Source: Thermoanaerobaculia bacterium
GTDB lineage: Bacteria; Acidobacteriota; Thermoanaerobaculia; Gp7-AA8
Assembly (NCBI GenBank): GCA_041671505.1
Contig: JBAZBK010000009.1
Span: forward strand, 1 to 64,000
DNA: 64,000 bases
Reading direction: 5' to 3'
Every line of letters starts with the position of its first letter. Position 1 is the first letter of the stretch. Positions 16,540-58,329 of this stretch are shown here, piece after piece. Position numbers and translations under genes: made by a program. The notes under the pieces are model-generated. The model worked only from the letters and a program-made list of their open reading frames with translations, did not search any database and was not told the DNA's origin.

Positions 16540-16959
16540 CTAGAACTTGGGCCGATCCGCCGGGCTTGCGGGACTCTTTGGGTCTGGCAGTACAGGTGGG
16601 AACGAGATCACGTCGATCTCGTCGGCGTAGTAGCGGTCGTCGCGGTACCAGCCCTTGATGACGATCTCCGCTCCGGTGATCTCTTCCCAGGAGCGGAGGT
16701 TCTTACCCCCGCCGCTGTTGGTGAAGATCGTCTGCTCGTCGATCCAGACCGCCGCGGCGACGGAACGCTTCGCGCCGTCGACGGTTCTGGTCTGGACGCG
16801 GAGTGTCCCGAAGTTCGAATCGATGCTCCTCACGACGGCGCGCACGGTCGAAGGCTTGTCGGGCTCTCCGCCGAGAGGGTTGAGGATCTCCACTCGATCT
16901 GCGCTGCTGCAACCCTGCAGCGCGAGGGTGATGAGGAGGGCGAAGAGCGGGTTTCTCAT
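16540..16959 (-). CDS. Small lipoprotein of unknown function.
   Basis: ATG 16959 carries a GGGAG Shine-Dalgarno sequence. The lipoprotein signal is MRNPLFALLITLALQGCSS. The protein is 139 aa. The longer track ORF 16540..17385 has an Arg-rich N-terminal extension that is unlikely to be real. Confidence 0.6.
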   Translation of the reverse strand: MRNPLFALLITLALQGCSSADRVEILNPLGGEPDKPSTVRAVVRSIDSNFGTLRVQTRTVDGAKRSVAAAVWIDEQTIFTNSGGGKNLRSWEEITGAEIVIKGWYRDDRYYADEIDVISFPPVLPDPKSPASPADRPKF

Positions 16960-17411
16960 GATGGCTCCCTCGACGGAGTATGCGGCCAGCCGCCCGGTGC
17001 GGCGCGGCTGCAGAATCATGGTTCCCGCGGCGTCCCGTGGGCGACCTAACCTCGACGGCCGGTCCGCAACGAGGCGTTTCGACGATTGTACCAGCGGCAG
17101 GGCCCGTGCCGTGCCGCGTCGCCGACGGTCACCGGACGAGCCAGTCACCCGTTGCACGCCGTCGTCGGTGACGGGGAGCATGCCGAACGTGTGCGCAACT
17201 ACGTCGGCGGCGACGGGCTGGGACCTGGGACGGTGCGTGCGATCGTGTTCGACCGTCACGGGCGCGCGTGGATCGGCCGGCAGAGCCAGGGGGCGCGAGC
17301 GTCTCCGCCCCCCGTGCTCGCGTGCAGCATAGGCGGTGAGGCCTGGCGCGCCGTGTACACCCCCGACCGACACGGAAGCTGCCACGCAGCCGCTGGTATC
17401 ATGCGCGCGAA

Positions 17412-20294: not shown

Positions 20295-20435
20295 TCGCGC
20301 CTGCGCGAGTTTCGCCGCGAGCCGCGAGCGCGACGCCGTTTTCTTCTACGGCTCACTTCGGCTCGCTTCGACAATTCGAGAACTGTTAGGCGCGGATTCA
20401 TCGCGCATGCCGCGAGAGTTGACCTCGTTCGTTCG

Positions 20436-21335
20436 TCACTCCGCCCACGGCTCGCCCGGCGGGAAGCCGAAGTTCATGCGGATCGTGGCGTACTCCGCGT
20501 CGATCATGCCGCTCGCGGTGCGGATCGTGAGCGGCGGCTCGACGACAGGACGCCATGAGCCTCCGGCACCGAACGCTCCCGGAAGGTCGGCGATCCTCGC
20601 TGCTGCGAAGAGCGAGAGCATCGGCGGCTCGCCTTCCTTGAAGATGACGTCGCGCCGGCGCAGGGCCACGAGCGCGCTGGAGCGGAGCGCCTCCTCCGCC
20701 CGTTCGCGCTGCGCGAAGGGAAAGACGAAGGCGAAGATGCCGCCCGGGGCGAGGATGCGCGCGGCCGTCGCCGCGTAGTCGGCAACGGTCCCTCGCATCT
20801 CGACGCGCGCGGGAACCGCCTGCGGATGCGCCGCCTTCGAGGCGGTGCCTTCCGGAAAATAGGGAGGCGACCCCGTGACCAGATCGAACGGAGGTTCGCC
20901 CTCGAAGAGCGCGGGATCGCGCAAGTCACCCTCGAGAAGGCGGTATCGCTCCGCGAGTCCGTTGTACTCGACGCTCTTTCTCGCGAGGCCAATCGAAACC
21001 GGCTGCGCCTCGACCGTCACCATCCTCGCGCCGGGCAGCCGCCACGCGACGATCATCGCGACCGAGCCGATGCCCGAGCCGAGATCGGCGGCGCGATCGA
21101 CTCGGGGCGCCCACTGCGTCCCGTACCACGCGGTCAGCACGTCGTCAGTCGAGAAGCGGTGACCGCGTGCGAGCTGGAAGATGCGGAAATGCCCGGCGAT
21201 ATAGTCGAGCGTCTCACCCTCGAGCGGCTCGATTCCACCGGGAGGCAGCGGGCCGGGACGGGCCCAGCCGCGGAATCGATGGCCGTCAGTTGCATCGGAT
21301 TGAACGGGAGGAGTCACGGGCGAAGTATGCAGCAT
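20436..21335 (-). CDS. Class I SAM-dependent methyltransferase (N6-adenine/TrmN6-like small-domain type).
   Basis: ATG at 21335 (MLHTSPV...). Motif I is DLGSGIGSVAM and motif IV is VTGSPPY (the D/N-PPY class). The longer track ORF starting at 21407 has an improbable N-terminal extension. Confidence 0.75.
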   Translation of the reverse strand: MLHTSPVTPPVQSDATDGHRFRGWARPGPLPPGGIEPLEGETLDYIAGHFRIFQLARGHRFSTDDVLTAWYGTQWAPRVDRAADLGSGIGSVAMIVAWRLPGARMVTVEAQPVSIGLARKSVEYNGLAERYRLLEGDLRDPALFEGEPPFDLVTGSPPYFPEGTASKAAHPQAVPARVEMRGTVADYAATAARILAPGGIFAFVFPFAQRERAEEALRSSALVALRRRDVIFKEGEPPMLSLFAAARIADLPGAFGAGGSWRPVVEPPLTIRTASGMIDAEYATIRMNFGFPPGEPWAE

Positions 21336-21827
21336 TCTCGACGACCGGACGCTCACGCGTCCGGCTACACATCTCTCGCATCGCTGTCGCGACGCTTGAG
21401 GCCTCACGGCCTCCGTGCGGCGTGTCCTGAGTCAAATTCAAATCGACACCGCACAGGATCCGCTCTAACTTTCACGAATCAGGCCACTTCCGAACTAGAG
21501 ATCCGAATTGAACCGGACAGCAGCGATCCGTACGTTGGGCGGGCGGAGCTCTCTGAGCGCCCGCTCGCTCCGCGAGAGTCGCAACGCTCGCCGCGGCGCC
21601 ACAAAGGGCTATCGGACATCACGCGAGTGATCGCCGCCACGTTTCCTCCTCGCCCCAGGCGATATGCTCTCCCTGCGGTCGTCCGCGCGCCCCGGAATGG
21701 TTCCGGCACGAGCAGTCCGGCGTCAGGGAGGACCTTTACAGCACGGACTCGACACGGCCGGACGCCGCGCGGAGAGGGGCGGGACGATGGTTCCCCCTGG
21801 CCGCGACGCCGGCAGCGGAAGAAAAGC

Positions 21828-23035: not shown

Positions 23036-25213
23036 ATGCGCACTACCGTCATCGTCGCTCCTGCCGGGCGTGGCGTCGGCATCACCACCGCCTGCCTCGG
23101 CATCGTCCGCGCGCTCGACCGCGAAGGCATCCGCGTCGGCTTTGCAAAGCCGGTCGCAAATCGCGAGCCCGACCACACCATCCCTTTGCTCTCGTTAGGC
23201 GCGCACTTCGCCATTCCGCCCGCGGTACCGCGTGGCGAGGCCGAAGCGCTGCTCGCCGCGGGTGACGACCAGACGCTGATGGAGCGCGTCGTCGCCATCG
23301 CCGACAAGGCGGGCGAGGACGTCGACGTGCTGATCATCCAGGGGATGCACCCCGAGATGGGCATGGTGCACTCCTCGCGCGTGAACGCGCTGATGCTCAA
23401 GGCTCTCGATGCCGATCTCGTGCTCGTCGCCGCGCCGGCCGCCGATCAGACGCCGGCAGAGGTCGCCGAGACGATCGCGATCGCGGCGCGCGGCTACGGC
23501 GCGCTCTCGGACGGGCGCGTGGTGGGCGCCATCCTGAACCGGGTGTGCGAGAAGAAGGGAGACGCGAGCGAGCTCGACGGCGACTCCTTCGGCCCCGGCT
23601 CCGCCGGCTGCTCGGGTTGCGCGGTCCCCGGACTCTCCGCGGAGCGAAAGAAGGAGTTCACGGATGCACTCGACGCCGAGGGACTCCGCGCCATCGCGAT
23701 CGTTCCGTGCAACTCCGATCTCATGGCGATGCGCGTCAAGGACATCGGCGACGCGCTCAATGCGCAGGTTCTCTACCCGGGCGAAGCGCGGACCCGACGC
23801 GTCAAGGATGTGGCCGTATGCGCGATGACCGTCGCGAATGCGCTCCGCGGGTTGAAGCCCGGAACGCTCGTGATCACTCCGGGCGACCGCGCCGACATCC
23901 TCCTGGCGGCCGCGCTCACGGTTCAAAGTGGAACGCCTCTCGCGGGTGTCCTTCTGACGGGAGGGCTCGCTCCCGACCGTCGCATCCTCGACCTCTGCCG
24001 GAAAGTCTTCGACGCAGGGCTCCCGCTCCTCCAGGTGCAGGCCTCGAGCTACCGGGCGGCGACGCAGGTCGCCTCGATGAACTCGACCATCCCGGTCGAC
24101 GACGCCGACCGGGTTGAGCGGACGATGAGCTTCGTCGCCGACCACGTCGATCTCGTCTGGGCGCGAGCCTTCGAGAAGCCGGCGCGCGCACCGCGCCTTT
24201 CGCCGCCGGCGTTCCGGCACCGTCTCGTGGAGACGGCGCGCGCGGACCAGAAGCGCATCGTCCTCCCCGAGGGGGCCGAGCCGCGGACCGTGGTGGCGGC
24301 GTCAATCGTGGCCGCGCGGCGTATCGCGCATTGCGTTCTTCTCGGGAACCCCGAGGAGATTCACGACGTGGCCGGGCGGCAGGGAATCATCCTGCCGCCA
24401 TCGGTGGAGATCATCAACCCGACCGAAGTCGCCCACCGTTACATCGCGCCGCTCGTCGAGCGCCGTGCGTCCAAGGGGATGACCGTCGAGCGCGCGGAGG
24501 TCGAGCTGCAGGACAACATCATGATCGGCACGATGATGATGGTGTTAGGCGAAGCCGACGGCCTCGTGTCGGGTGCGATCCACACGACGGCTCACACGAT
24601 CCGGCCCGCGCTGCAGATCATCAAGACCGTTCCGGGATGCAGCCTCGTCTCGAGCATCTTCTTCATGTGTCTGCCCGACCAGGTGCTCGTCTTCGGCGAC
24701 TGCGCCGTCAACCCTAACCCGACCGCCTCGGAGCTCGCCGACATCGCGATCCAGAGCGCCGACTCCGCGATCGCGTTCGGCGTCCCGCCGCGCATTGCGA
24801 TGCTCTCGTACTCGACCGGCGCAAGCGGAACGGGAGAGGACGTCGACAAGGTCGTCGAGGCGACGCGCATCGCGCGCTCGCTTCGTCCCGAGCTCCTCAT
24901 CGACGGGCCGCTCCAGTACGACGCGGCGATCATGCCCGACGTCGCGCGCCTCAAGGCGCCGAAGTCGGAGGTCGCAGGGAAGGCGACGGTCTTCATCTTC
25001 CCCGACCTCAACAGCGGAAACGTCACCTACAAGGCGGTGCAGCGCTCGGCGAATGTCGTAAGCATCGGCCCGATGCTGCAGGGTCTCGCCAAGCCGGTGA
25101 ACGATCTCTCGCGCGGCTGCCTCGTCGAGGACATCGTCTTCACGATCAACCTCACGGCGATTCAGGCGCAGCAGGTCGCGAGGCTGAAGGCGAATGCGAT
25201 GGTGATGGTCTGA
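23036..25213 (+). CDS. pta: Phosphate acetyltransferase (long form with an N-terminal AAA/DRTGG domain).
   Basis: ATG 23036 lies 24 nt after the ackA stop, and the product is 725 aa. The C-terminal PTA_PTB catalytic domain contains SGAIHTTAHTIRPALQIIKT, DCAVNPNP and GPMLQGLAKPVNDLSRGC. The longer track ORF 22310..25213 is a frame artefact. Confidence 0.9.
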   Translation: MRTTVIVAPAGRGVGITTACLGIVRALDREGIRVGFAKPVANREPDHTIPLLSLGAHFAIPPAVPRGEAEALLAAGDDQTLMERVVAIADKAGEDVDVLIIQGMHPEMGMVHSSRVNALMLKALDADLVLVAAPAADQTPAEVAETIAIAARGYGALSDGRVVGAILNRVCEKKGDASELDGDSFGPGSAGCSGCAVPGLSAERKKEFTDALDAEGLRAIAIVPCNSDLMAMRVKDIGDALNAQVLYPGEARTRRVKDVAVCAMTVANALRGLKPGTLVITPGDRADILLAAALTVQSGTPLAGVLLTGGLAPDRRILDLCRKVFDAGLPLLQVQASSYRAATQVASMNSTIPVDDADRVERTMSFVADHVDLVWARAFEKPARAPRLSPPAFRHRLVETARADQKRIVLPEGAEPRTVVAASIVAARRIAHCVLLGNPEEIHDVAGRQGIILPPSVEIINPTEVAHRYIAPLVERRASKGMTVERAEVELQDNIMIGTMMMVLGEADGLVSGAIHTTAHTIRPALQIIKTVPGCSLVSSIFFMCLPDQVLVFGDCAVNPNPTASELADIAIQSADSAIAFGVPPRIAMLSYSTGASGTGEDVDKVVEATRIARSLRPELLIDGPLQYDAAIMPDVARLKAPKSEVAGKATVFIFPDLNSGNVTYKAVQRSANVVSIGPMLQGLAKPVNDLSRGCLVEDIVFTINLTAIQAQQVARLKANAMVMV

Positions 25214-25464
25214 CCGGGGAGTGAGGCTCCCTGAAAGGCGGAACGGTTCGGAGCGGGGTGACGCGCGCCGGTACCGCTGGGGTCAGGTCTCGAGAGAGTG
25301 GCACGGCGGTACGGATCGAGGCCCGACCATCGGGGTGACCCGGTCAGGTCCACACGCCTAACGACGAGTGACCGGCTCGTGGTAGAGTTGCCCTTTCCGA
25401 CAATTGACCGCGGGCCCGAAATGCCCGATGGCAGGAAGCGGCCGGTTCGCACGGAGGCGCACGA

Positions 25465-25860: not shown

Positions 25861-25985
25861 CGCGGCACAGCCCCGCCGCTTCACGCCGCCTCGTATCTCG
25901 ATACTATCCAGTCGTCCTGGTCTATGGGAAAGCAAGCAATCGAGCTGCCTGTCGTGCGACGCAGCGGCCGGTGGACCGGGAAGAT

Positions 25986-26219
25986 CTATGGCTTGGGCGC
26001 GGGTGGTGGCAGGTCACGGGCGGGGCAGACCGAATCGAAGCCGGTCTTGTTGTGCGTCCCATCGCAGAACGGTTTGTTCGCGGACTGACCGCAGCGGCAG
26101 AGCGAGACGACAGTCCTCCCGCCGAGACCGAACGGTGTGCCGTCCTGATCCACGATCGTGATGTCGCCCTCGAGGCGGAGCGGTCCGTTGTTCTTCACGA
26201 TGACTTTGAACTCTGACAT
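25986..26219 (-). CDS. CDGSH-type iron-sulfur domain protein.
   Basis: ATG 26219 carries an AAGGAG Shine-Dalgarno sequence 6 nt upstream. The product is 77 aa. The cluster-binding motif is C-R-C-G-Q-S-A-N-K-P-F-C-D-G-T-H. Confidence 0.75.
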   Translation of the reverse strand: MSEFKVIVKNNGPLRLEGDITIVDQDGTPFGLGGRTVVSLCRCGQSANKPFCDGTHNKTGFDSVCPARDLPPPAPKP

Positions 26220-26562
26220 TCGGTCTCCTTCGTACGGCTGAGGCAACGCGATCCCGACTCGCGCGGAATGCGGCCATCTTCTCACACGGACGCGGCTCCG
26301 CTCCGCGGCGAGGAGCGCAGGGTCAGCGGGACGGAGTCAGAGCCTCACTGTTCGCCACTTCCTCCTGACTGAAGATGGGTCGGAATCTACCAGCCGTAGA
26401 GTTCAGCGCGGGGAGGGCCTCCTTCGTCCCACCGTGAGGGAGGGCCAGCGATCGGTCCGGAGAAAACCGAAGCGCTGACCCCGGATTTCATCGAACGCGA
26501 GTGTCCCAGAGTACAGAAGAGTGAAGCTCACGAGCGAAGCTCCGACCACACCTCCCGAGGCG

Positions 26563-30643: not shown

Positions 30644-30683
30644 TTTGACGGGAGTTCTTGCTGAAAATCAGACTGTCGCCTAA

Positions 30684-30775
30684 CCCCGCAGCGCATCGGC
30701 CGGCTCCATGCGCGAGGCGACGAGGCCAGGGTAGGGGCCTTCCGTTCGGCCGCTGCCGATCGCGTTGCGCCCTCC
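30684..30775 (-). repeat. Diverged copy (about 75-85% identical) of the 3' end of the FtsX permease gene. It is the oldest of three copies.
   Basis: ccccgcagcgcatcggccggctccatgcgcgaggcgacgaggc... aligns to 35810-35900, the true gene 3' end, and to 33047-33140. Translation preserves ...LVASRMEPADALRG plus a stop, but no upstream ORF continues. Confidence 0.5.
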
Positions 30776-30828: not shown

Positions 30829-32925
30829 CTACTGCAGGAGATACGGCGCCCCGATCCCGATGTCCCGGTAGATGTTGAACGTCGCCAGGATGAGGTTTGC
30901 AGCCACGCCGAGGAGAGCGAACGACGTGACGAGTCGCGGCGACCGCTCGACGAGCCGCTCCATGCCGGGAGTCGCGGCGAGCAGGAGTCCCGGAAGGGCG
31001 TGCAGGAAGTGCCTGTTCCAGAACGTCGCGGTCGCGATCACGAAGAGCAGGCTCGCCGCCGCCCAGAACGATCCGAGCAGCGGCTCCGTCCGCTCCGACA
31101 TCCGCCTGACACCCGCGACGAGCGGAACGAGAAGCAATTGCAGCAGCACGGCCAGACAGATGATCAACCGTTCGACGGTGCGGCCATCTGCGAAGAAGGT
31201 CATCTTTTCCCGGGCGAGCTCGAACGTCTGCCAGAGACCCGAAGCCCACACCCCTCCGAAGAAGACGAGGAGTGGCAGCGCTCCGAGCGCGACCGCGAGC
31301 GTGGTCGTGCGTCGTGACAGCGTGCCGTCGCGCCACGCGCCTACGATCAATCCGAGCGCGAGCGCGCCGGAGAGCGGGACGACTGTCGGTCTCGAGAAGA
31401 GTCCCACGACGAGAACTCCGCACACGGCGAGCCAGTCGGCGAAAGCCCAGCGCGTCGATCGGCCGAGCCTGCAGCCAAGCCAGAGCCCGAGCACGACGAA
31501 GCAGTATCCGAACACATCGGTGCTGGTTCGGGCCAGGACCTTCACGAAGAGAAAGTGGGTCGTACCCAGCGACCAGAGAAGCCATGCGCCTCGGGATGAC
31601 AGCCAGGGAATCTCCTCGAGAAGCCGGAGCAGCCCTAACGCCGCCACGAGTCCGGCAAGGTAGGCGAGCACGACGTACGCATTGACCGTCGGCACTACGT
31701 GGGACCCGAGTGCCACGAGGAAAGGGACGAGCGGGCTGTGGCTGTGGGCATAGGAACGCATGTCGACGACGAGACCGGATGCCGCGCCGGGCACGCCATC
31801 GAGCACCATCCGAATGCGCTCCGAAAAGATGCCGTAGCCATCCGGCATCCAGTGCGAGGAACCCATGAACGTGTAGTCTCGCTGCCAGTAGGCGGCGGAG
31901 ACGATTGCCAGGAGAGCGACGATGGACGCTGCCAGCAGGTCGCGCCTGCGGCCGCTCGAAGCGGTACCTGCCAGCACCGCGAGCCACGCCACGATCGCCG
32001 ACACGTACGCGGCTTTCCGCCAGGCCGATTCGTAGCGCGAGACGAAGAGGAGTCGGGCGCGGGTGGGATTCCCGTCGACCAGGAGCGATCCGTCACCTTC
32101 GTTATCCGTCGCCGAAGCGAGAATCCGGGATCCGCCTTCGGCCGGCTGCTCGTAGGTCAGCACAACTTCGTGGTCGAGAGCGGGTGACGGTGGAGTGCGG
32201 AAGTGGACGATTTCACCGACGCGGGGGAGGTCACGCGCTGGCCCGCGGAACTCGTACAACGTCTTGCGGGTCGTCCTGTCGCTCAGCGACAGGCTGACGA
32301 TCGCTTTCGAATCCGGCTCGTGAGTAAGGTGAACCGCGAAGCCGTTCAGCACTTCGCCGCTTCCACGGAACGTCTGTTGCACGCGCAGCGGCACGCCCCG
32401 AGCCGCGATGCCGCTGATCCACGCTCCCCCGGACGCGTCAGGGACGAGGATCTTGCGGGCATCGAGCGAGAGGTTTGCGCCCTCGCCTTCGAGCCTGATC
32501 GGACTGTCATCGCGCGACCGCAGTTCCAGAAAGTCGATGCCGAGCGGAGCAACGCTCTCGCGGAGCCTGACGAGATAGGACCGGTTCGCCTCGAGCCTGA
32601 AAGGCGGGCCTGTGGCGACGATCGCGAACCGTTCTCCGACGGCGCGGACCTCGCCTCGAGAGACCACGCGCCCTTCGCTGTCCGTGACGTCGACGACGCC
32701 CGTGGCCTTCGTCCACGCCGTGGAGCGCGCTCGGGCGACCAGTGTGAACTCGCCGGAGCGCGGGAGCGTGCGACTCCAGGTGGCCTCGTAGCCGCTCGAG
32801 GCGAGCTCACTTCCGTCCGAGCTCAAGCCGGGCTCTTGCGGGACAGGGGAGAATGGAATCGTGAGCAGCGGGACCGAGCCAATGATCGCGGCCGCGATCC
32901 AGGGCCACTGCCGCCGGAAGTCCAT
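30829..32925 (-). CDS. Polytopic membrane protein with a roughly 300-aa extracytoplasmic N-terminal domain, possibly a GT-C/ArnT-like or DUF-type transporter.
   Basis: ATG 32925 (MDFRRQWPWIAAAIIGSVPLLTI), or an alternative GTG at 32943. There is one N-terminal transmembrane/signal segment, then a soluble domain, then 10 or more hydrophobic helices (for example LLAASIVALLAIVSAAYW, VVLAYLAGLVAALGLLRLL, WLAVCGVLVVGLFS). Confidence 0.6.
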   Translation of the reverse strand: MDFRRQWPWIAAAIIGSVPLLTIPFSPVPQEPGLSSDGSELASSGYEATWSRTLPRSGEFTLVARARSTAWTKATGVVDVTDSEGRVVSRGEVRAVGERFAIVATGPPFRLEANRSYLVRLRESVAPLGIDFLELRSRDDSPIRLEGEGANLSLDARKILVPDASGGAWISGIAARGVPLRVQQTFRGSGEVLNGFAVHLTHEPDSKAIVSLSLSDRTTRKTLYEFRGPARDLPRVGEIVHFRTPPSPALDHEVVLTYEQPAEGGSRILASATDNEGDGSLLVDGNPTRARLLFVSRYESAWRKAAYVSAIVAWLAVLAGTASSGRRRDLLAASIVALLAIVSAAYWQRDYTFMGSSHWMPDGYGIFSERIRMVLDGVPGAASGLVVDMRSYAHSHSPLVPFLVALGSHVVPTVNAYVVLAYLAGLVAALGLLRLLEEIPWLSSRGAWLLWSLGTTHFLFVKVLARTSTDVFGYCFVVLGLWLGCRLGRSTRWAFADWLAVCGVLVVGLFSRPTVVPLSGALALGLIVGAWRDGTLSRRTTTLAVALGALPLLVFFGGVWASGLWQTFELAREKMTFFADGRTVERLIICLAVLLQLLLVPLVAGVRRMSERTEPLLGSFWAAASLLFVIATATFWNRHFLHALPGLLLAATPGMERLVERSPRLVTSFALLGVAANLILATFNIYRDIGIGAPYLLQ

Positions 32926-33046
32926 ACGCAGCGATGCTACCACGAGGGAAACGCGCCGCAGGGAGGCGGTTCCCTAACAACGCGCTTCCGGGGCCGTGGC
33001 CACAAAGGCGGAGGATGGCCGGTAACGACCCCGGCGTTTCGCCGCA

Positions 33047-33303
33047 CTACCCCCGCAGCGCTTCGACCGGCTCCATGCGCGAGGCGACGAGGCTCGGGTA
33101 GAGTCCCGCCGTCAGGCCGATGGAGATCGCGAAGCTGCCGGCCATGATGATGCCGGGCATCGAGATCGGCAGGCCGCCAGGGAAATTGCTGCCGATCGCG
33201 AGGACCAGGCCGACACCGAGGCCTGCGCCGATGGCGGCGCCGATCGTCGATAGCGTCATCGACTCGATGAGGAACTGGAAGAAGACTTCGCCGTCGCTCG
33301 CGC
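33047..33303 (-). pseudogene. Detached duplicate of the 3' 257 nt of the FtsX permease gene, about 97% identical to 35810..36066.
   Basis: Near-identical nucleotide alignment with the true gene. It encodes MGASDGEVFFQFLIESMTLSTIGAAIGAGLGVGLVLAIGSNFPGGLPISMPGIIMAGSFAISIGLTAGLYPSLVASRMEPVEALRG, the same as the C-terminus of the 35803..37026 product. Homology stops abruptly at gcgcccat (33303). Confidence 0.8.
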
Positions 33304-33306
33304 CCA

Positions 33307-33346
33307 TGGTCACCGGTGGGGTCACGAATGGTCACCGGTGGGGTCA
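33307..33346. repeat. Direct 18-bp repeat tggtcaccggtggggtca, two copies separated by 4 bp, at the truncation point of the ftsX fragment.
   Basis: The two copies lie at 33307-33324 and 33329-33346. They sit immediately between the ftsX-fragment breakpoint and hairpin H1. Confidence 0.7.
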
Positions 33347-33401
33347 GGCCTCGAATTTGTACTTTAGGCAGAGCTAGAGTACAGATTCGAGGCCTGACCC
33401 C
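33340..33401. repeat. AT-rich inverted repeat (hairpin H1) flanked by GGGGTCAGG / CCTGACCCC.
   Basis: The left arm is ggggtcaggcctcgaatttgtactttagg and the right arm is tagagtacagattcgaggcctgacccc. Arms of about 28 bp carry 2 mismatches around a 6-nt loop. The AT-rich core contrasts with the 68% GC background. Confidence 0.7.
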
Positions 33402-33410
33402 GCCCTCCAC

Positions 33411-33480
33411 CGCGATCCAGGCGCAGCAGGTTGCGAGGCTGAAGGCGAATGCGCTGGTCATGGCCTGACCGAGGAGTGAG
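33411..33480 (+). pseudogene. Detached duplicate (about 90% identical) of the last roughly 60 nt of pta, including the stop codon and about 12 nt downstream.
   Basis: gcgatccaggcgcagcaggttgcgaggctgaaggcgaatgcgctggtcatggcctga aligns to 25154-25213. It translates as IQAQQVARLKANALVMA plus a stop, versus pta IQAQQVARLKANAMVMV plus a stop. The downstream ccgaggagtgag matches ccggggagtgag after pta. Confidence 0.7.
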
Positions 33481-33550
33481 TTCTCAGGAGGCAGCGAAGA
33501 GTCGGACAGGCCTACGTTTCGGAGTTTGGGTCACAGTTTCAGTTTTGTTT

Positions 33551-33615
33551 GGGGGTCACAGCTAAAATATAAACTTTAGGCCACGGCCTAAAGTTTATAT
33601 TTTAGCTGTGACCCC
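33551..33615. repeat. Perfect 31-32-bp AT-rich inverted repeat (hairpin H2) with GGGGGTCACAGC / GCTGTGACCCCC ends.
   Basis: The left arm gggggtcacagctaaaatataaactttaggcc and the right arm ggcctaaagtttatattttagctgtgaccccc flank a 2-nt centre. An outer imperfect extension cggagtttgggtcacag ... ctgtgacccccaaactccg spans 33513-33623. Confidence 0.8.
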
Positions 33616-33803
33616 CAAACTCCGCTCGACGCGCAGGAACGACTGCAGTCGCTCCTCACGACACCTGGGGGCAGGGGCGCGCCGCCGTATGCGGCCCGGT
33701 TCGTCAGACTCCCAATCGAGCGGGTGTCTCCCACGCATACGGGAAACCTGTCGCATACATCACACCGGGGCCTGATGAATGACCCCAATCCACTGATCCG
33801 GAC

Positions 33804-35573
33804 CTACCGCCTGATCGCGACCACTCCCACCAGCGACAGCATCAGGCCGAGCACGACCATGCCGCCGATCGACAAGCTCGGGACCTCCAGCGAAGTCACG
33901 ACACTGAACCCGGCGCTGGCGGTATCGTCGTCGGCGCTCGCGTCAGCGACGTTACCAGGCATCGTCACGCTCGCATTGTTGACGACCGGTCCCAACACGC
34001 CTGGAGCCGTGGCCGTCACGGTGTAGGTTGCGCTCCCTCCCGGAAGGAGCGTGACGAGGTCGTCGATGTTGCCGGCTCCTGCCGGTGTGCATGAGGAGCC
34101 CCCTGACGCCGAGCAGGTCCAATTCACGTTCGAGAGACCGGCAGGGAAGACATCGGTGACCGTCGCTCCGTTCACTGCGTCGGTCCCGGAGTTCGTCACG
34201 ACGATCGTGTACTGTACCGGCCCGTTTGGCTCGACGAGTGCGGCACTGCTGCTCTTCTGGATGGCAACATTCACCGAGAGCGGCGCGAGAAGCGCGCCCG
34301 CCGGGTACCCATAGCCCTCGAGGTGCGCGAAGCCGTACACCTGGACGCCAATCGGTGCCGCCGCGGTGACCGTATGGCCACCGCTCGTGACCGGGATCTG
34401 CGCGGCTGAGTACCCGCTTGCCGCAATCGGCGAAAAGCTGGCGCCGGGGACGAGTACGCCATCCACGAAAACCGTACCGGTCGCTGCTGCCGGCGCAACG
34501 ATGTTGAGGTGGCTGGCTGCCCAGCCACCCGTCTCGGCCGAGAATCGATACGACGACTGGAACGCCGTCGTCGGCAACACGGTCATCATTAACGGATCGC
34601 CGATCTGGTCCGGAAGATTGTCGATGTCGTCGTCCGCGGCGAACTGGGTGACGTAGACCGGGTGCGTCGTCACGATGCTAGAGTTTCCTCCGAGCGTCGT
34701 ATCGAAGTGCTCGAGGGCGTTGATTGTCGTGATCAGCGCGCCGTTGATGCGAATCTCCGTGCCGTTCTCGGACGCGAGGATGCGGACGACCTCCGGCGCG
34801 GTGCGCGGCGCGAGCCGCACGGTCAGCACATGCAGCCCCCACGCGCTGGTCGGCAGAATCTGCTCCATCGAGTAGTCGCAGCCCGAGCCATCTGCTGCGG
34901 GGACCTGAGCACACGAGCGGCCGCCGAAGACGGCTACCGGCTTGTCCGAGGCGATCGTCGTGCCGGTCAGGTCGAGGGACGTCTCGCCTGCGACGAGCAG
35001 GTAGCTGGAACCCTGGTCGAGCGACAGGACGTACGGCACCCCCGCCGTCCTCGATCCTCCGTTCGCCGTCGTGGTGACCGTTACCGTCGTGCCGTCCTCC
35101 GTTCCGACGATCGCGAACTGCGAGCCCCCGCCCAGGCCGATATGCCATGAGCTGACGATGTACGAGGTCCCGAGAGCGGCGGTCGGCAGCACAAGGTATC
35201 CGCCCCCGGTTGCAGGCCGGCGATTCCAGCCATGCACGACGACGGGGACATCCGAAGTGACGTGGATGCCGAGGCTCTCGATGACGTCGTTGTTCCAGAG
35301 TTCGGTAGTCACCGGCAGGTCCACCGTGGTCGCTGTACCCGGCACGACGACGAAGTCGATATCGATCGCAAGCGAGCTGTTCGCGATGTTGCCAGCGGCC
35401 GGCGCGGATGAGGAGATCACGAGAGACATCGTCCCGGCCGGAGGAGGTCCCGGCGGAAACCCGACCCAGAAGTCCGTGCCGGAAGTTCCGGCCGCTCCGA
35501 GCGTGGAGGGAACGAGCCCAAAACAAGCAAAGAACACCATTGAGGCCAACGTGGGCCGTCGCACGCTGTACAT
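33804..35573 (-). CDS. Cell-surface protein with an IgGFc-binding-protein N-terminal-type domain, a DUF11 domain and a C-terminal sorting signal (PEP-CTERM-like variant).
   Basis: ATG 35573 carries an AGGAG Shine-Dalgarno sequence. The signal peptide is followed by GTDFWVGFPPG, the hallmark of the IgGFc-binding N-terminal family. The DUF11 unit is PNGPVQYTIVVTNSGTDAVNGATVTDVFPAGLSNVNWTCSASGGSSCTPAGAGNI. The extreme C-terminus is EVPSLSIGGMVVLGLMLSLVGVVAIRR, a short motif plus a transmembrane helix plus a basic tail, as in exosortase substrates. Confidence 0.75.
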   Translation of the reverse strand: MYSVRRPTLASMVFFACFGLVPSTLGAAGTSGTDFWVGFPPGPPPAGTMSLVISSSAPAAGNIANSSLAIDIDFVVVPGTATTVDLPVTTELWNNDVIESLGIHVTSDVPVVVHGWNRRPATGGGYLVLPTAALGTSYIVSSWHIGLGGGSQFAIVGTEDGTTVTVTTTANGGSRTAGVPYVLSLDQGSSYLLVAGETSLDLTGTTIASDKPVAVFGGRSCAQVPAADGSGCDYSMEQILPTSAWGLHVLTVRLAPRTAPEVVRILASENGTEIRINGALITTINALEHFDTTLGGNSSIVTTHPVYVTQFAADDDIDNLPDQIGDPLMMTVLPTTAFQSSYRFSAETGGWAASHLNIVAPAAATGTVFVDGVLVPGASFSPIAASGYSAAQIPVTSGGHTVTAAAPIGVQVYGFAHLEGYGYPAGALLAPLSVNVAIQKSSSAALVEPNGPVQYTIVVTNSGTDAVNGATVTDVFPAGLSNVNWTCSASGGSSCTPAGAGNIDDLVTLLPGGSATYTVTATAPGVLGPVVNNASVTMPGNVADASADDDTASAGFSVVTSLEVPSLSIGGMVVLGLMLSLVGVVAIRR

Positions 35574-35802
35574 GTCATCGACTCCTGAAGCTTCAGATCG
35601 AGGGATCGACGACCAGCAAGCGCCGCCGCGGAAACAGACAGAATCCGCTTAACGACATAAACTCGCAATTCGGGGAAGCGGATGGGTCACTCTACCACGC
35701 GCTGGGGCGCGAGAACGTCGGGATCATCGCCCCACCGTCTGGGCCATGCTCAGCGAAACGTGAGCGGGGTGGACTGGCCGAGAAACCGCCGGCGTTTGAT
35801 TT

Positions 35803-37026
35803 CTATCCCCGCAGTGCCTCGACCGGCTCCATGCGCGAGGCGACGAGGCTCGGGTAGAGTCCCGCCGTCAGGCCGATGGAGATCGCGAAGCTGCCGGCCA
35901 TGATGATGCCGGGCATCGAGATCGGCAGGCCGCCGGGGAAGTTGCTGCCGATCGCGAGGACCAGGCCGACGCCGAGTCCTGCGCCGATGGCCGCGCCGAT
36001 CGTCGACAGCGTCATCGACTCGATGAGGAACTGGAAGAAGACCTCGCCGTCGCTCGCGCCCATCGACTTGCGCAGGCCGATCTCGTAGAGGCGCTCCCCG
36101 ATCGAGATCTTGAGCACGGAGAAGATGCCGACGCCGCCGATGACGAGCGAGACGCCGGCGATCGAGAAGAAGACGATCATCCAATTGCGCAGGATGACGT
36201 CGACTTTCTCTCTCTCCTCGAGAATCTCCTTGCCGATGTTCGTCACCTTGGTGTCTTTGATGCCGTTGTGCGCCCGGTTCATGATGCTCTTCGTCTCGTC
36301 TTCGGCCTCGACCGCGCGCTCGAACTGCGCCGCCTTGACGACCATGTACGAGACCGTGTTGCGCCCATAGATCGTCTCGTAGGTCGACAGAGGAACGTAG
36401 ATGCCGCGCGTCTCGCGCAGCATGTCGTCATCGTTGACGAAGGTCATGTCGAACTTGTGGACGACGCCGATGACTTCGAGCCGCCTGCCGGAGAGGGTGA
36501 TCTGCTCGCCGATCGCGTCGCGCTTGCCGAAGAGCTTTTCCTTCAGCTCCCAGCCGAGAACGCAGACGGGGCGAACCCCTTCCTGGTCGCGCTCGGAGAC
36601 GAACCGCCCGACAGCGGCGTCGCGGTTGCGAACGTAGGCGTATTCGGAGGTGACGCCGTAGACCGACGCCTTACGCAGCTTGCCGCCGGCGGCGATGATG
36701 CCCTCGCCCTCCGCGACAGGCGCAGTCGCGCTCGTCTCGACGGCGCTCTTGAACGCGGCGCGATCCTCCTCGCGCATGCCGCGCGAGAAGTGCACTTTCG
36801 ACTGCTGGATGCGGTCGACCGGCTGCTTGCCCGAGACGTAGAGCACGCCGTCGTAGCCGAGGTCGTTGAAGCCCTTGAGGACGCCGGCGCGCACGCCGTC
36901 GAGCAGCGAGAGGACGACGACGAGCGCGACCGTGCCGAGGATGACGCCCGAGAGCGTCAGCATCGAGCGCAGCTTGTGCGCCCGGATCTCCTCGAGGCTG
37001 GTGCGAACTGACTCTTTGACGTGCAT
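35803..37026 (-). CDS. ABC transporter permease, FtsX/MacB-type (permease 2 of the efflux operon).
   Basis: ATG 37026. The N-terminal transmembrane helix is LRSMLTLSGVILGTVALVVVLSLL. A large periplasmic MacB-like domain is followed by a C-terminal FtsX four-helix bundle ending ...SRMEPVEALRG. Confidence 0.85.
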   Translation of the reverse strand: MHVKESVRTSLEEIRAHKLRSMLTLSGVILGTVALVVVLSLLDGVRAGVLKGFNDLGYDGVLYVSGKQPVDRIQQSKVHFSRGMREEDRAAFKSAVETSATAPVAEGEGIIAAGGKLRKASVYGVTSEYAYVRNRDAAVGRFVSERDQEGVRPVCVLGWELKEKLFGKRDAIGEQITLSGRRLEVIGVVHKFDMTFVNDDDMLRETRGIYVPLSTYETIYGRNTVSYMVVKAAQFERAVEAEDETKSIMNRAHNGIKDTKVTNIGKEILEEREKVDVILRNWMIVFFSIAGVSLVIGGVGIFSVLKISIGERLYEIGLRKSMGASDGEVFFQFLIESMTLSTIGAAIGAGLGVGLVLAIGSNFPGGLPISMPGIIMAGSFAISIGLTAGLYPSLVASRMEPVEALRG

Positions 37027-39039: not shown

Positions 39040-39137
39040 GATTGTGCCCTCAGGAATTGATTTACGGAGTTCGTACCGCAGGGTTGCGCCTCTCCGCGGG
39101 ATTCTTCAATGGACGGGCCGGCGCGTAGCGCCGGAGG

Positions 39138-39277
39138 ATCGGTAGCCCCGGGCTTCAGCCCGGGGTTGGCAAGCGACGATTTTTTCGCGCCGCGAAGCGG
39201 CGCGGGATCCTGCGCCGCTTCGCGGCGCGAATATTCGAAACGCTTGGGCCCCCGGCTGAAGCCGGGGGCTACCGATC
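39138..39277. repeat. MITE-like element with 13-bp terminal inverted repeats GATCGGTAGCCCC / GGGGCTACCGATC and internal nested hairpins (copy 1 of the GGTAGCCCC family).
   Basis: The left end is gatcggtagccccgggcttcagcccggggttggc and the right end is gcccccggctgaagccgggggctaccgatc. Internal hairpins include cgcgccgcgaagcggcgcg and gcgccgcttcgcggcgc. The element is related to copies at 53185..53334 and 58093..58281. Confidence 0.6.
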
Positions 39278-39317
39278 CGTCACCGCTTCGCGGTGAGTCC
39301 AGCTCGTGCACGCCCCA

Positions 39318-41413: not shown

Positions 41414-41465
41414 GCGATTGATGATACCTCGGGAGCGCACCGCCTGCCGAGGCGGGTCCTGTTCT

Positions 41466-41563
41466 CAATTCTCCATTCTCCAGTCGACATTCTTCATTTC
41501 GGTTCTCCAGCTCACTCGAAAACCGAAATGAAGAATGTCGAATGGAGAATGAAGAATGAAGAA
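41466..41563. repeat. Heptamer-repeat palindromic intergenic element E1 (GAATGAA family).
   Basis: The left arm is cattctccattctccagtcgacattcttcatttcgg and the right arm is ccgaaatgaagaatgtcgaatggagaatgaagaatgaagaa. The arms are reverse complements with 2-3 mismatches and share the core CCGAAATGAAGAATGTCGAATG with E2, E3 and E4. Confidence 0.75.
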
Positions 41564-41588
41564 CGGCGCGGGTCGCGTGACTGAGCGG

Positions 41589-44165: not shown

Positions 44166-44279
44166 GGGGTAATGGTAGTTTGTTGATCGTATTTGTCAAG
44201 AATGAAGCGTGAGGGTGGGCTGGGATGCGATGCATAAGGCGAGGCCGGCAGTGAGAATGAGACGAGACAAGCGGCGAGA

Positions 44280-44410
44280 GAAGAGAAACGAGAGAAGAGA
44301 GAAGAGTTAAGAGAGAAGAGTTAAGAGTTGGGGGTTGGCGGGAGCGCACCTGAGAAGGAACGGGTGGCAAACTCTTAACTCTTCTCTCTCAACTCTTAAC
44401 TCTTCTCTTT
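44280..44410. repeat. Heptamer-repeat inverted repeat (GAGAAGA and GTTAAGA units) overlapping the 3' end of the Rrf2 gene.
   Basis: The left arm is gagaagagttaagagagaagagttaagagtt and the right arm is aactcttaactcttctctctcaactcttaactcttctc. The spacer of about 45 bp is gggggttggcgggagcgcacctgagaaggaacgggtggca. Confidence 0.7.
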
Positions 44411-44883
44411 TCTAGCTTCTCTCGTCGTTGCCTTTCCGCTCGCACTTCCACCCGATGCCGTGCCCGCGCCGCCCGCCCCTCCTCCGCCACCATGTCCGCG
44501 AGCGTCTTCGCCTCGAGCAGCTCGGCGACGACGTCGCGCACCTCGCGCATGAGGGCCGAGAACGCGGGCGACGCCTCGAGCGGCGTCGGCTGGTAGAAGT
44601 TCTTCGACGCGCTCCGGACCGGCGCGAGAGGGCCATCGACCGCGCGGACGACATCGGCGATCGAGATCTCCGACGCGTCCATCGCGAGCTTGAAGCCTCC
44701 GTCGGCGCCGCGCCGCGACACGAGAAAGCCGGCGCCCGTCAGCTTGCGGAGGATCTGCTGCAGGAACGGCGCCGGGATCGTGAAGCGCTCGGTGATGTCG
44801 TGCGTCTTGCACCACCCCTCGCTCGCCTCCGCGATCGCGAGAAGCGCAAGGCAGCTGTACTCGCTGGCGACCGTCATTCGCAT
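44389..44883 (-). CDS. Rrf2-family transcriptional regulator (IscR/CymR-like).
   Basis: ATG 44883 (MRMTVASEYSCLALLAIAEA). The winged-helix region reads HDITERFTIPAPFLQQILRKLTGAGFLVSRRGADGGFKL. An unusual basic C-terminal tail, RQRREKLEKRRVKS, is encoded inside the repeat element. Confidence 0.8.
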   Translation of the reverse strand: MRMTVASEYSCLALLAIAEASEGWCKTHDITERFTIPAPFLQQILRKLTGAGFLVSRRGADGGFKLAMDASEISIADVVRAVDGPLAPVRSASKNFYQPTPLEASPAFSALMREVRDVVAELLEAKTLADMVAEEGRAARARHRVEVRAERQRREKLEKRRVKS

Positions 44884-44960
44884 GGGGGCGATTGTGGGGG
44901 AGGGGGGGTGGGGGGTCAAGTTGACGGGAGATATGAATTGAATGGCACGTCAGCCCGAAA

Positions 44961-45081
44961 CCGAAATGAAGAATGTCGAATGAGGAATGAAGAATTGAGA
45001 AAAGGGGCCGTGGTCGTCGTCACGGCCGGGCATGCGCCTTTTCTTCATTCTTCATTCCTCATTCGACATTCTTCATTTCGG
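44961..45081. repeat. Heptamer-repeat palindromic element E2 (GAATGAA family) with a central GC hairpin.
   Basis: The arms are ccgaaatgaagaatgtcgaatgaggaatgaagaattgag and cttcattcttcattcctcattcgacattcttcatttcgg. The centre is aaaaggggccgtggtcgtcgtcacggccgggcatgcgcctttt, containing the hairpin ggccgtg...cacggcc. Confidence 0.75.
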
Positions 45082-45128
45082 TGCCCGCGCGGCTACACAT
45101 GATCATCGTTACCGGCGAGAAACGTGCG

Positions 45129-46004: not shown

Positions 46005-46038
46005 ACGTACGCTCTTTGATTCCAAGGCCAGATTGAGA

Positions 46039-46153
46039 ACCGAAATGAAGAATGTCGAATGCGGAATGAAGAATGAAGAAAGTGGGCGCGAGAAGTCAGT
46101 GAAGCCGGCGAACTTCTCCATTCTGCATTCCGCATTCGACATTCTTCATTTCG
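46039..46153. repeat. Heptamer-repeat palindromic element E3 (GAATGAA and GAATGCG units).
   Basis: The arms are ccgaaatgaagaatgtcgaatgcggaatgaagaatgaagaa and ttctccattctgcattccgcattcgacattcttcatttcgg. Confidence 0.75.
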
Positions 46154-46199
46154 GTTTCTTCGCGAGTCTCGAAATGATAGGTCGAGGGCGAAAAGCGCC

Positions 46200-47027: not shown

Positions 47028-47275
47028 GGGCGATTGCTGAATGCGGATTGCAGAATGCGGAATGCGGAGTGAAATGCGGAATTCGGATTGCGGAATGCGG
47101 AATGGGAATGCGGCCGGTGAACCGAAATGTCGAATGTTGAATGAGGAATGGAGAATGTAGAAAGGGGAGTACGGCAAGTCCGAGGTCAGTCTCCTTTCTT
47201 CATTCCTCATTCTTCATTCGACATTCGACATTTCGGTTCTGATTCTGCCTTTCATTCCGCATTCCCACTTCCGCA
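47028..47275. repeat. Composite heptamer-repeat palindromic element E4. Outer arms are GAATGCG x8 and CCGCATTC x3; inner arms are the CCGAAATGTCGAATG family.
   Basis: The left outer arm is gaatgcggattgcagaatgcggaatgcggagtgaaatgcggaattcggattgcggaatgcggaatgggaatgcgg. The inner IR pairs accgaaatgtcgaatgttgaatgaggaatggagaatg with cattcctcattcttcattcgacattcgacatttcggtt. The right outer arm abuts or overlaps the glgC stop. Confidence 0.75.
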
Positions 47276-49643: not shown

Positions 49644-49673
49644 CGGGGATGGTGGGAGGGCCGCAGGGAGGAG

Positions 49674-49830
49674 TTGTTAGTTTTTAGTTGTTAGTTGTTA
49701 GACGGGAATGGCAGGCCGCGACTTCTTCCTGACAACGCAGCTACCGGCGACCTCCATCCTCTTCCCAACGCGGGTCGAATCCTTCAGCCAGCGCAGACTG
49801 TCTAACAACTAACAACTAACAACTAACAAC
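49674..49830. repeat. Heptamer-repeat palindromic element E5 (GTTGTTA units). Near-perfect 31-bp inverted repeats flank a 95-bp spacer and abut the downstream gene's ATG.
   Basis: The left arm is gttgttagtttttagttgttagttgttagac (49674-49703) and the right arm is gtctaacaactaacaactaacaactaacaac (49799-49830). Confidence 0.8.
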
Positions 49831-49833
49831 TGC

Positions 49834-50581: not shown

Positions 50582-50678
50582 CGAAGTGAGAACGCAGAAC
50601 GATGAAGTGTGAACCCAGAAAGGGGCTGAGCAGCCCCTTTTCTGGATTCTGAGTTCAACGTTCTACGTTCTCACTTCG
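50582..50678. repeat. Palindromic element E6 (heptamers ending in GAA) enclosing an intrinsic terminator hairpin.
   Basis: The arms are cgaagtgagaacgcagaacg and cgttctacgttctcacttcg, 20 bp with 1 mismatch. The centre is aggggctgagcagccccttttctgg, a GC stem with a T-run, so it is a likely rho-independent terminator for the 49834..50550 gene. Confidence 0.7.
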
Positions 50679-50705: not shown

Positions 50706-51479
50706 ATGAAAGTCTCCTTCCTCGGCACCGGCACTTCCACAGGCGTTCCGACTGTCGGATGCCGCTGCAGGGTCTGCACGTCGACGAATCCTAAGAACGT
50801 GCGGTTCCGGCAGTCGATCAGGATCGAGGCGAAGGGAAAGCACATCCTCGTCGACACGACGCCCGACCTCAGGACGCAGCTGCTGCGCGACCCGATCCCG
50901 CGGCTCGACGCGGTGCTGCTGACGCACTCGCACTCCGACCACGTGATGGGGCTCGACGACATCCGCCCCTTCAACTTCTTCCAGCGCGAGACGATCCCCG
51001 TCTATGCCTCGCCTCCGACGGCGAAGGCTGTGCGTCGCGCCTTCAGCTACATCTGGGATCCGCACGCGCAGATCGGCGGCGGCAAGCCGCAGATCGACCT
51101 TCGCGAGATCGACGGGCCGTTCGATTTCTACGGCATCGACATCGTCCCGATCCCCGTCCGCCACGGCGACTGGACGATCCTCGGGTTTCGCATCGGCCCC
51201 TTCGCCTACATCACCGACACGAACGGCATCCCCGAGGAGTCGCGACGCCTGTTGGAAGGAGTCGACACGATCGCGCTCGACGGCCTCCGGCCCGCGCCAA
51301 CGCACCCGACCCACTTCACCATCGGCGAGGCGGTCGAGGAGGCGAAGGCGATCGGCGCGCGCAAGACCTGGCTCATCCACATGAGCCACGACGCGGAGCA
51401 CGAGGAAGTGGATGCTGGGCTTCCTGCGGGCATTTCGCTCGCGTACGATGGCCTCGAACTCGTCTTTGACGAGAATTGA
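50706..51479 (+). CDS. MBL-fold metallo-hydrolase (PhnP/GPP-like phosphodiesterase family).
   Basis: ATG 50706 (MKVSFLGTGTSTGVPTVGCRC...). The metal-binding HSHSDH motif is present. The product is 258 aa. Confidence 0.8.
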   Translation: MKVSFLGTGTSTGVPTVGCRCRVCTSTNPKNVRFRQSIRIEAKGKHILVDTTPDLRTQLLRDPIPRLDAVLLTHSHSDHVMGLDDIRPFNFFQRETIPVYASPPTAKAVRRAFSYIWDPHAQIGGGKPQIDLREIDGPFDFYGIDIVPIPVRHGDWTILGFRIGPFAYITDTNGIPEESRRLLEGVDTIALDGLRPAPTHPTHFTIGEAVEEAKAIGARKTWLIHMSHDAEHEEVDAGLPAGISLAYDGLELVFDEN

Positions 51480-51594
51480 AAATTGAAAATTGAAAAACAA
51501 ACATCCAATACGGCTTGTTAATATGAAAGGTAGTTTTGGTACATTGATATGAATCCTGCACGTTTTTCAATTTTCAATTTTCAATTTTCAATTC
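51473..51594. repeat. Heptamer-repeat palindromic element E7 (GAATTGA and AAATTGA units) with an AT-rich centre. The left arm overlaps the upstream stop codon.
   Basis: The left arm is gaattgaaaattgaaaattgaaaa and the right arm is ttttcaattttcaattttcaattttcaattc. The AT-rich centre is caaacatccaatacggcttgttaatatgaaaggtagttttggtacattgatatgaatcctgcacg. Confidence 0.8.
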
Positions 51595-58281: not shown

Positions 58282-58329
58282 CTGACATCCCTCCGGGATG
58301 TCGGAAGCGAATCGGCCAAGCTCCTCCGC

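Follow-up and report, generated by a model that had tools for sequence, protein, structure and literature searches.

RAYT-like genes (RAYT, tyrosine transposase associated with a REP, a palindrome that is repetitive and extragenic) that carry terminal inverted repeats (TIRs) in place of REPs have been described under the names TIRtrons and TIRYTs (Di Nocera et al., 2013, PMC3733652). A TIRtron is a unit of one gene, and the TIRYT that it encodes is a tyrosine (HUH) transposase. Many TIRtron TIRs have the motif GGGGWSAS in common, and their moderately abundant families consist of single copies, dimers and clusters, in hosts that include Acidobacteria. Most TIRYTs are equated with subclass 2.1 of TnpA_Y1, whose members have the motifs NH[YF]H and Y[IV]HLNP and, at the C-terminus, a helix-turn-helix (HTH) (Quentin et al., 2018, PMC6006769). 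The group has also been named Group 1 RAYT (Bertels et al., 2017, PMC5581495) and described as widely distributed, rather like insertion sequences (ISs), and flanked by 16-mers with a copy number of about 12 per replicon. Two long hairpins, hereafter H1 and H2, in the DNA of an uncultured Thermoanaerobaculia bacterium are compared with these systems here. They lie in a stretch of 64,000 nucleotides (hereafter the window; GenBank assembly GCA_041671505.1, contig JBAZBK010000009.1, positions 1 to 64,000), between pta and a MacB/FtsX-type permease gene and beside fragments of both genes (pta' and FtsX'). Judged by their sequence, and with a probability of about 0.8, they are TIR dimers, i.e., two inverted TIRs of about 30 nt that face each other across a spacer of 2-6 nt. 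At the same level of confidence they would be gene-less, presumably mobile miniature derivatives of TIRtrons, comparable to REPINs (inverted REP pairs) or miniature inverted-repeat transposable elements (MITEs).

A preliminary description of the window, made from its letters alone, had pointed out both hairpins and their GGGGTCA feet, and both are real. H1 (33337-33404) is made up of 31-nt arms (33337-33367 and 33374-33404) that are 90% complementary around a 6-nt loop, its three mismatches all being G:T on the + strand, and as single-stranded DNA it folds at -31 kcal/mol (z = -12.3 against shuffles). H2 (33547-33620) has 100% complementary arms 2 nt apart, a fold of -40.5 kcal/mol in the same setting (z = -13.2) and an outer pairing of 33520-33530 with 33614-33624. 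The long arms and the outer pairing of H2 had been recognized before, but its perfect arms span 36 nt and not 31-32. The two are the sole long AT-containing hairpins of the window at loop lengths of up to 14 nt. They had also been called its most AT-rich sequence, a rank that belongs to 51472-51593 (25-28% GC); H2 comes second at 35-40% GC and H1 has 55% GC overall.

Each arm consists of an outer foot, GGGGTCAS, and an inner end, ACTTTAGGC. The foot reads GGGGTCAG on both arms of H1 and GGGGTCAC on both arms of H2, and the arms of the two hairpins are 73% identical in register. Since both feet fit GGGGWSAS as it has been defined (PMC3733652), H1 and H2 are assigned to the TIR dimers of the TIRtron class. 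A common foot had been proposed earlier and stands, but GGGGTCAS taken alone is weakly enriched in the window (9 matches against 4.1 expected). The 12-mer GGGGTCAGGYCT occurs three times, against 0.5 expected even with one mismatch allowed, and all its occurrences lie in H1 and in a decayed third copy, H0, found downstream of the resident pta gene.

The connection to a transposase comes from other organisms. In locus L026, from Omnitrophota, two inverted arms bound an open reading frame (ORF) of 329 aa that matches PF01797 Y1_Tnp (6.7e-13) and the NCBIfam REP-associated tyrosine transposase model NF047646 (72 bits, against a cut-off of 80). An arm is located about 30-60 nt upstream of the ORF in this locus, in two Arsukibacterium loci (L024 and L031) and in two metagenome contigs (L045 and L051), and an hmmsearch with the A4 profile matches the proteins of the other TIRYT loci. 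A profile of these proteins retrieves thousands of relatives, named REP-associated tyrosine transposase or RayT by their sources, several of them with C-terminal HTH domains. The TIRYT proteins carry the motifs NHYH and YIHRNP or YVLQNP (NHYH and YIHRNP in L026).

Four further loci (L054 from Saccharobesus, L055, L059 and L061) were retrieved through the protein alone. Three of them (L054, L055 and L061) have GGGGTCA(G/A)GTCT repeats upstream of the gene and, inverted, at its 3' end, and in L059 the downstream repeat only was found. Altogether, GGGGTCA(G/A)G(T/C)CT accompanies a TIRYT gene in 8 of 8 loci (L026, L024, L031, L045, L054, L055, L059 and L061), all from organisms other than the present one. 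The stop codon TGA lies inside TGACCCC in five loci (L055, L061, L026, L024 and L031). The foot of the right TIR, AAGACCTGAcccc, supplies the final codons together with the stop, and for this reason about 65 of 122 homologues (P0121-P0242) end in [K/E][T/A/N] directly before the stop (K-T, E-T, K-A or E-N). When a profile of only the protein-retrieved TIRs was run on the window, its top three matches were the left arm of H1, the right arm of H1 and H0.

The likeness to TIRtrons comprises the GGGGWSAS outer motif, the presence of the same sequence around Y1 genes with NHYH and a C-terminal HTH, a right repeat that overlaps the 3' end of the gene, a moderate number of copies arranged singly, in dimers or in clusters, and hosts among the Acidobacteria. 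The present case differs in that the window holds no cognate gene, the host is an uncultured member of the Thermoanaerobaculia and H2 is a private, AT-rich and perfectly palindromic variant. Four features go beyond the contents of PMC3733652, PMC6006769 and PMC5581495, as far as the sections used here extend: a repeat of about 28 nt that crosses phyla, a duplication of outer flank plus foot, feet laid over host stop codons and feet at synteny breaks.

The same arms can be followed by sequence. A pattern derived only from H1 and H2, GGGGTCANNNCTNNAANNNNNACTTTAG, was scanned in one genome per GTDB species and gave 33 loci, three of which resemble chance matches. The Acidobacteriota metagenome-assembled genomes (MAGs) BP_58 and RYN_27 hold nine and eight, and the Thermoanaerobaculia MAGs BIOS2019_out_097, whose Pta is 90% identical to that of the window, and R2F hold three and two; further loci belong to Omnitrophota, Binatia, Aminicenantes, Pirellulales, Syntrophomonadaceae and Arsukibacterium. 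Positions that the pattern leaves free are also conserved (GGTCT[GTC]GAAA). Metagenomes gave 14 loci with a narrower pattern, and six of these belong to the Thermoanaerobaculia H1 type, GGGGTCAGGCCTCGAAACTGTACTTTAG; a scan of IMG/VR viral contigs for the arms returned 0 matches. Many of the copies come, as in H1 and H2, in inverted pairs, with folds of -51.6 kcal/mol in L012 and -27.8 kcal/mol in L014, and several contigs terminate within such pairs. The preliminary description had named uniqueness to this locus as the outcome that would favor a simple local palindrome, and the hairpins are clearly not unique: the family is found in related genomes and across phyla. For the host genome itself, the 64 kb of the window show two dimers, one relic and partial feet, whereas BP_58 has at least nine loci and RYN_27 eight.

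Eight dimers of BP_58 and RYN_27 (L009, L011, L020, L023, L027, L030, L034 and L035) carry an extra outer segment, TAAAGTCAAAGT. Its TAA is the stop codon of the flanking gene, on both sides in L020 and L034. The foot starts 12-13 nt after the end of the ORF in five left-hand cases and 8-16 nt after it in six right-hand cases.

In REPINs and their RAYTs (Bertels and Rainey, 2011, PMC3116915), too, an inverted pair of short repeats makes up a long, non-autonomous hairpin with co-evolving arms, and the repeat also borders the gene of a related Y1 transposase. Here, likewise, the inverted pair folds into one hairpin whose arms evolve together: arm identity is higher within than between dimers in BP_58 (0.96 vs. 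0.89) and RYN_27 (0.87 vs. 0.81), and in the window it is 90% within H1 and 100% within H2 compared to 73% between them. The unit differs in not being a GTAG-tagged palindrome, its enzyme is of Group 1/TIRYT rather than Group 2/3, and its copies number tens per genome or fewer where REPINs reach hundreds. Nor are the arms REP units, which are short imperfect palindromes with 5' GT[AG]G, whereas the arms of H1 and H2 begin GGGG and are not self-complementary. The REPs and bacterial interspersed mosaic elements (BIMEs) of E. coli are also extragenic inverted repeat pairs, linked to TnpA_REP, but of another sequence class, the arms here being TIR-like and not self-folding. REPs and BIMEs are, moreover, known join-points of chromosomal rearrangements.

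The preliminary description had suggested ends or relics of an IS200/IS605 element. The superfamily was named correctly, the arms being Y1-associated TIRs of the RAYT/TIRYT branch, but they are not IS200/IS605 ends. The two groups have in common the HUH Y1 catalytic family, the lack of a target-site duplication and hairpins of DNA as substrates. IS200/IS605 ends, in contrast, are short subterminal hairpins with unlike left and right sequences, on elements that carry tnpA and/or tnpB, whereas the stems here measure 31-36 bp and neither the element nor the window contains a gene for Y1_Tnp or TnpB. A single small non-autonomous element of this type (33340-33616, resembling a palindrome-associated transposable element) that carries pta' and has H1 as its left and H2 as its right end is very improbable. 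Two related hairpins 210 nt apart, with arms linked to the Y1 superfamily, would suit such an element, but each hairpin is a complete inverted arm pair like the dimers that occur singly elsewhere, and IS200/IS605 ends are imperfect and in direct orientation. No tnpA or tnpB lies nearby, Rfam reports no omega-RNA or IS605 motif, and scans of GTDB species and metagenomes found no second copy of the 285-bp unit. The IS110-like target structures proposed in the same place find no evidence.

The reading of H1 and H2 as TIR dimers also has to be set against a role as RNA or DNA structures selected by the host, terminators or 3'-end stabilizers for pta and the DUF11 gene, with an incidental likeness to transposase ends. 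Their positions are compatible with this, as H2 lies 78 nt after the stop of pta' and about 185 nt after that of the DUF11 gene and H0 follows the real pta stop; the folds are very stable, the H1 mismatches are all G:T on the + strand, and REPs of E. coli are generally known to stabilize mRNA (see also PMC3733652, in the sections used here). However, a T/U tract is missing after both hairpins, the sole terminator-like site is a 6-pair stem within the left arm of H1, and a scan for terminators and promoters gave nothing relevant. H1 stands between two gene fragments and lacks an intact upstream gene, the same arms bound transposase genes in at least five phyla, and the two G:T mismatches inside the TIR arms would by chance share a strand about 25% of the time. 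The Rfam scan that had been recommended yields, in E-value mode over 32000-35000, only spurious miRNA and snoRNA matches, with no Rfam family. The terminator or structured RNA proposed earlier is not supported as the primary explanation, and host selection of the structures appears improbable.

H0 retains its feet, GGGGTCAGGTCTCGA and TCGAGGCCCGACC, around an interior replaced by GC-rich sequence, and its fold is no longer significant (z = -1.7). It accounts for the related motifs that had been noticed after pta. A profile of the family matches only H1, H2 and the H0 remnant in the window (Table 1).

Table 1. Hairpin arms, duplicated flanks and gene fragments in the window.
Feature	Coordinates	Strand	Basis or remark
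H0, decayed TIR dimer 66 nt 3' of pta stop codon	25279..25330	+	feet GGGGTCAGGTCTCGA / TCGAGGCCCGACC kept
FtsX' fragment, copy of the final 87 codons (35803-36063) of the intact gene for a MacB-type permease	33047..33307	-	261 bp, 96%; abuts H1 unit
Direct repeat ATGGTCACCGGTGGGGTCA, copy 1: outer flank + partial foot, truncated arm start 22 nt upstream of full arm	33306..33324	+	100% identical copies
Same 19-nt direct repeat, copy 2; its final 7 nt form the H1 left-arm foot	33328..33346	+	100% identical copies
H1 left arm, TIR-type repeat GGGGTCAGGCCTCGAATTTGTACTTTAGG	33340..33368	+	family profile E = 4.7e-8; best window match of protein-retrieved TIR profile; fits GGGGWSAS
H1 loop GCAGAG	33368..33373	.	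DNA fold
H1 right arm, inverted TIR copy GGGGTCAGGCCTCGAATCTGTACTCTAGC on - strand	33373..33401	-	family and protein-retrieved TIR profiles
pta' fragment, last 20 pta codons + 12 nt downstream	33409..33480	+	starts directly after H1 right foot
Foot-like GGCCTGACC overlapping pta' stop codon	33462..33470	-	counterpart GGTCTGACC in resident pta, 25207-25215
Partial flank + foot copy GTTTGGGTCACAG, 23-25 nt upstream of H2 left arm	33524..33536	+	matches GTTTGGGGGTCACAG at 33547-33561; sequence reading; outer pairing
H2 left arm: 5-nt outer extension GTTTG, then TIR-type repeat GGGGGTCACAGCTAAAATATAAACTTTAGGCC	33547..33582	+	family profile E = 5.3e-5
H2 right arm, perfect inverted copy of left arm	33585..33620	-	Logan contig L001 identical through 33591-33620

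A truncated copy of outer flank plus foot lies 19-30 nt outside a full arm at H0, H1 and H2. At H1, 12 of 12 flank bases are identical, and at H0 a partial foot, GGGGTGAC, stands at 25253, 26 nt upstream. Tandem duplications of this kind, consisting of outer flank and the first 7-20 nt of the arm, are found beside full arms in at least seven other lineages (L014, L017, L024, L031, L032, L054 and L055), with a spacing of 19-45 nt and up to five copies in L031. They occur in unrelated phyla and beside TIRYT genes, and may be a footprint of TIRYT enzyme chemistry. The 19-nt repeat at H1 is not a target-site duplication because it includes the foot itself. When the flanks were read directly, no target-site duplication was seen around seven BP_58/RYN_27 dimers or H2. 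Tn3-family inverted repeats, with GGGG...TAAG-like ends, were also considered and rejected, since spacing and inner motif do not fit and there is no 5-bp target-site duplication.

Several observations weigh against the assignment to TIRtron-type dimers. The profile of protein-retrieved TIRs matches the window with weak E-values (0.15-0.36), because the shared core is just 12 nt, and leaves H2 undetected; the H2 foot, GGGGTCACAGCT, deviates from the GGGGTCAGGTCT core. Further copies of the H2 type are absent from the GTDB species and metagenome scans, the arms of the closest relatives are mostly solo rather than dimers, and the 64 kb hold just two intact dimers and one relic. Six-frame hmmsearch found no TIRYT gene in the window or in any fetched Acidobacteriota locus, and a cognate enzyme in the source genome is therefore putative. 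Finally, the enzyme assays in the sections of PMC8266576 and PMC3733652 drawn on here concern Group 2/3 RAYTs and not TIRYTs, and a mechanism on single-stranded DNA is therefore an analogy with IS200/IS605 and Group 2/3 RAYTs.

How might such dimers arise? Group 2/3 RAYTs have been shown to cleave single-stranded hairpins and to carry out strand transfer on them (PMC8266576). By analogy with these and with IS200/IS605, a TIRYT encoded elsewhere in the genome would make or move the dimers in trans, and its gene would be expected between arms of the GGGGTCAGGCCTCGAA type. The enzyme would act on single-stranded DNA, where the folded dimer could bring its two feet together; the GGGGTCAS foot would be recognized, cut and rejoined, and the dimer copied or moved as a minimal two-ended substrate. 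The pta-MacB interval may, moreover, have been broken at dimer ends or hairpins during its rebuilding from diverged alleles, and any effects on transcripts would be secondary.

The hairpins had been placed at a rearrangement joint, and H1 does lie exactly between FtsX' and pta'. With FtsX' on its left and pta' on its right, the 100-bp H1 unit (33308-33407) exactly occupies the space that separates the gene fragments. Between FtsX' and the intact permease gene (35803-37026) there are 10 differences, all synonymous third-position changes, which indicates that the fragment diverged within a working gene and was cut off recently. A diversity-generating retroelement, with template and variable repeats as the FtsX copies, was rejected since the differences are mixed transitions and transversions, synonymous and not adenine-specific. 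An older, more decayed third relic of the FtsX 3' end is found after the next gene (30680-30764). Along the minus strand, the gene and its 3' end are followed by a block, by 3' end', by another block and by 3' end'', an arrangement that resembles serial scars at an insertion hot spot.

On the other side of H1, pta' is 90% identical to the end of the resident pta (25153-25225) and 95% identical to that of the closest relative, L060. In L060 (3685-3699) the pta stop lies inside a perfect foot, GGCCTGACCCC (ATGGCCTGAcccc), and homology to the window ceases 2 nt past this stop, within the TGACC of the foot. The C-terminus of Pta reads LKANA[LM]VM[AV] before the stop, in place of the AKAGKG of more distant relatives. 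Homologues of the window Pta in named Thermoanaerobaculia MAGs are 84-96% identical. None of the four relatives' loci examined (L002, L004, L005 and L060) has a dimer 3' of pta, and the gene downstream of pta differs in each. The methyltransferase gene that follows pta in L002, and the 130-aa ORF and zf-CDGSH gene that follow it in L004, are present elsewhere around ack-pta in the window (16594-16979, 20434-21343 and 25985-26303), and the neighborhood has thus been reshuffled repeatedly. The DUF11 protein (NCBI MFA6956272.1) has, besides itself, only matches of at most 49% identity. Given the differing genes after pta and the diverged FtsX' and pta', the pta-MacB interval is read as a mosaic of diverged alleles with TIR-type seams.

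Since H1 fills the gap between the fragments and all FtsX' differences are synonymous, the joint is either a recent mosaic (formed, e.g., through homology in pta and an illegitimate join at H1) or the product of a two-strain co-assembly. The latter would leave the hairpins real but make FtsX'-H1-pta'-H2 an artefact, in which the pta-MacB intervals of two strains were strung together in one MAG contig. The source is indeed a 195-kb contig from a Thermoanaerobaculia MAG, other assemblies break at these palindromes, and both the synonymous-only differences of FtsX' and the greater closeness of pta' to another strain's pta are as expected of two-strain alleles. Logan contig L001, which is identical over 33591-35848, ends inside H2 and at the point where the two FtsX copies become identical; these ends fit both real recombination and co-assembly. 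An independent contig across the H1 joint was sought, and none is on record. Such an artefact is nevertheless considered unlikely: neither 33307/33308 nor 33402/33409 has shared sequence of a length that would permit a graph misjoin, H1 is unique and imperfect and has the family's own duplication of flank and foot, and the older FtsX relic shows that scars of this kind accumulate here.

Duplicated 3' ends of pta and FtsX bracket gene blocks, as att duplications do, and H2 is a near-perfect palindrome of 74 bp. Both features would be in keeping with targets of a site-specific recombinase or resolvase (an island att, an integron attC or a protelomerase site), and the preliminary description had listed recombination sites among its options. 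There is scarcely any likelihood of this, however, as no integrase, transposase or recombinase was found among the tested proteins (Pfam for the ORFs of 25.4-38.8 kb, NCBIfam and PHROGs on subsets), while the family is dispersed as single intergenic copies and has no viral matches. As candidates in their own right, attC was rejected because the GTTTGGG...CCCAAAC of H2 has the wrong order and bases for R'' (RYYYAAC) and R' (GTTRRRY) and no integrase was found, and inspection together with the family evidence led to the rejection of a protelomerase site.

Other repeats are present in the window. Between 41 and 52 kb, AT-rich hairpins of 100-160 nt follow nearly every housekeeping gene (ABC transporter, Rrf2, hydrolase, RNase PH, GlgC-like, DnaJ-like and phosphoesterase genes), at 41461-41564, 44272-44427, 44960-45082, 46038-46156, 47119-47239, 49672-49831, 50582-50678 and 51471-51594. 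Their arms are heptamer-periodic repeats (GAATGAA/GAATGTC..., AGTTGTT and GAAAATT) unrelated in sequence to H1 and H2, and the set includes the most AT-rich stretch of the window. In two metagenome loci (L046 and L053) a TIR arm is preceded by similar AT-rich sequence. At 39122-39292, 53167-53353 and 58079-58296 there is another family of inverted repeats, rich in GC and with the core GGTAGCCCCGGGCTTCAGCCCGGGGGCTACC; its arms measure 41-58 nt and are separated by about 80-105 nt. The family is also present in BIOS2019_out_097, a related MAG (L038, around 4250-4300), and looks like another MITE- or REP-type repeat.

Whether the TIR feet and dimers are the actual breakpoints of the mosaic, rather than its passengers, is a more speculative matter, and the chances are well against it. 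Single strands would then be joined at GGGGTCAS feet by a TIRYT (HUH) enzyme or through processing of the hairpins by the host. If so, blocks of host genes would be swapped or stacked while the 3' ends of the bordering genes are kept. This would account for the pta stop that lies in a foot at the end of synteny, for H1 at the joint of FtsX' and pta' and for the serial 3'-end relics, and the phylum-wide duplication of flank and foot would represent a footprint of cleavage and rejoining.

The assignment of H1 and H2 as probable TIR dimers places them in the little-studied TIRYT/Group 1 RAYT class of repeats, in uncultured Thermoanaerobaculia, with a TIR end sequence of about 28 nt that is conserved from Gammaproteobacteria to Omnitrophota and Acidobacteriota. 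Since such repeats interrupt assemblies and coincide with breaks in synteny, they matter for judging the contiguity of MAGs and the rearrangements that these appear to contain. H1, H2 and the duplicated flank and foot would provide natural substrates for a first biochemical test of a TIRYT.

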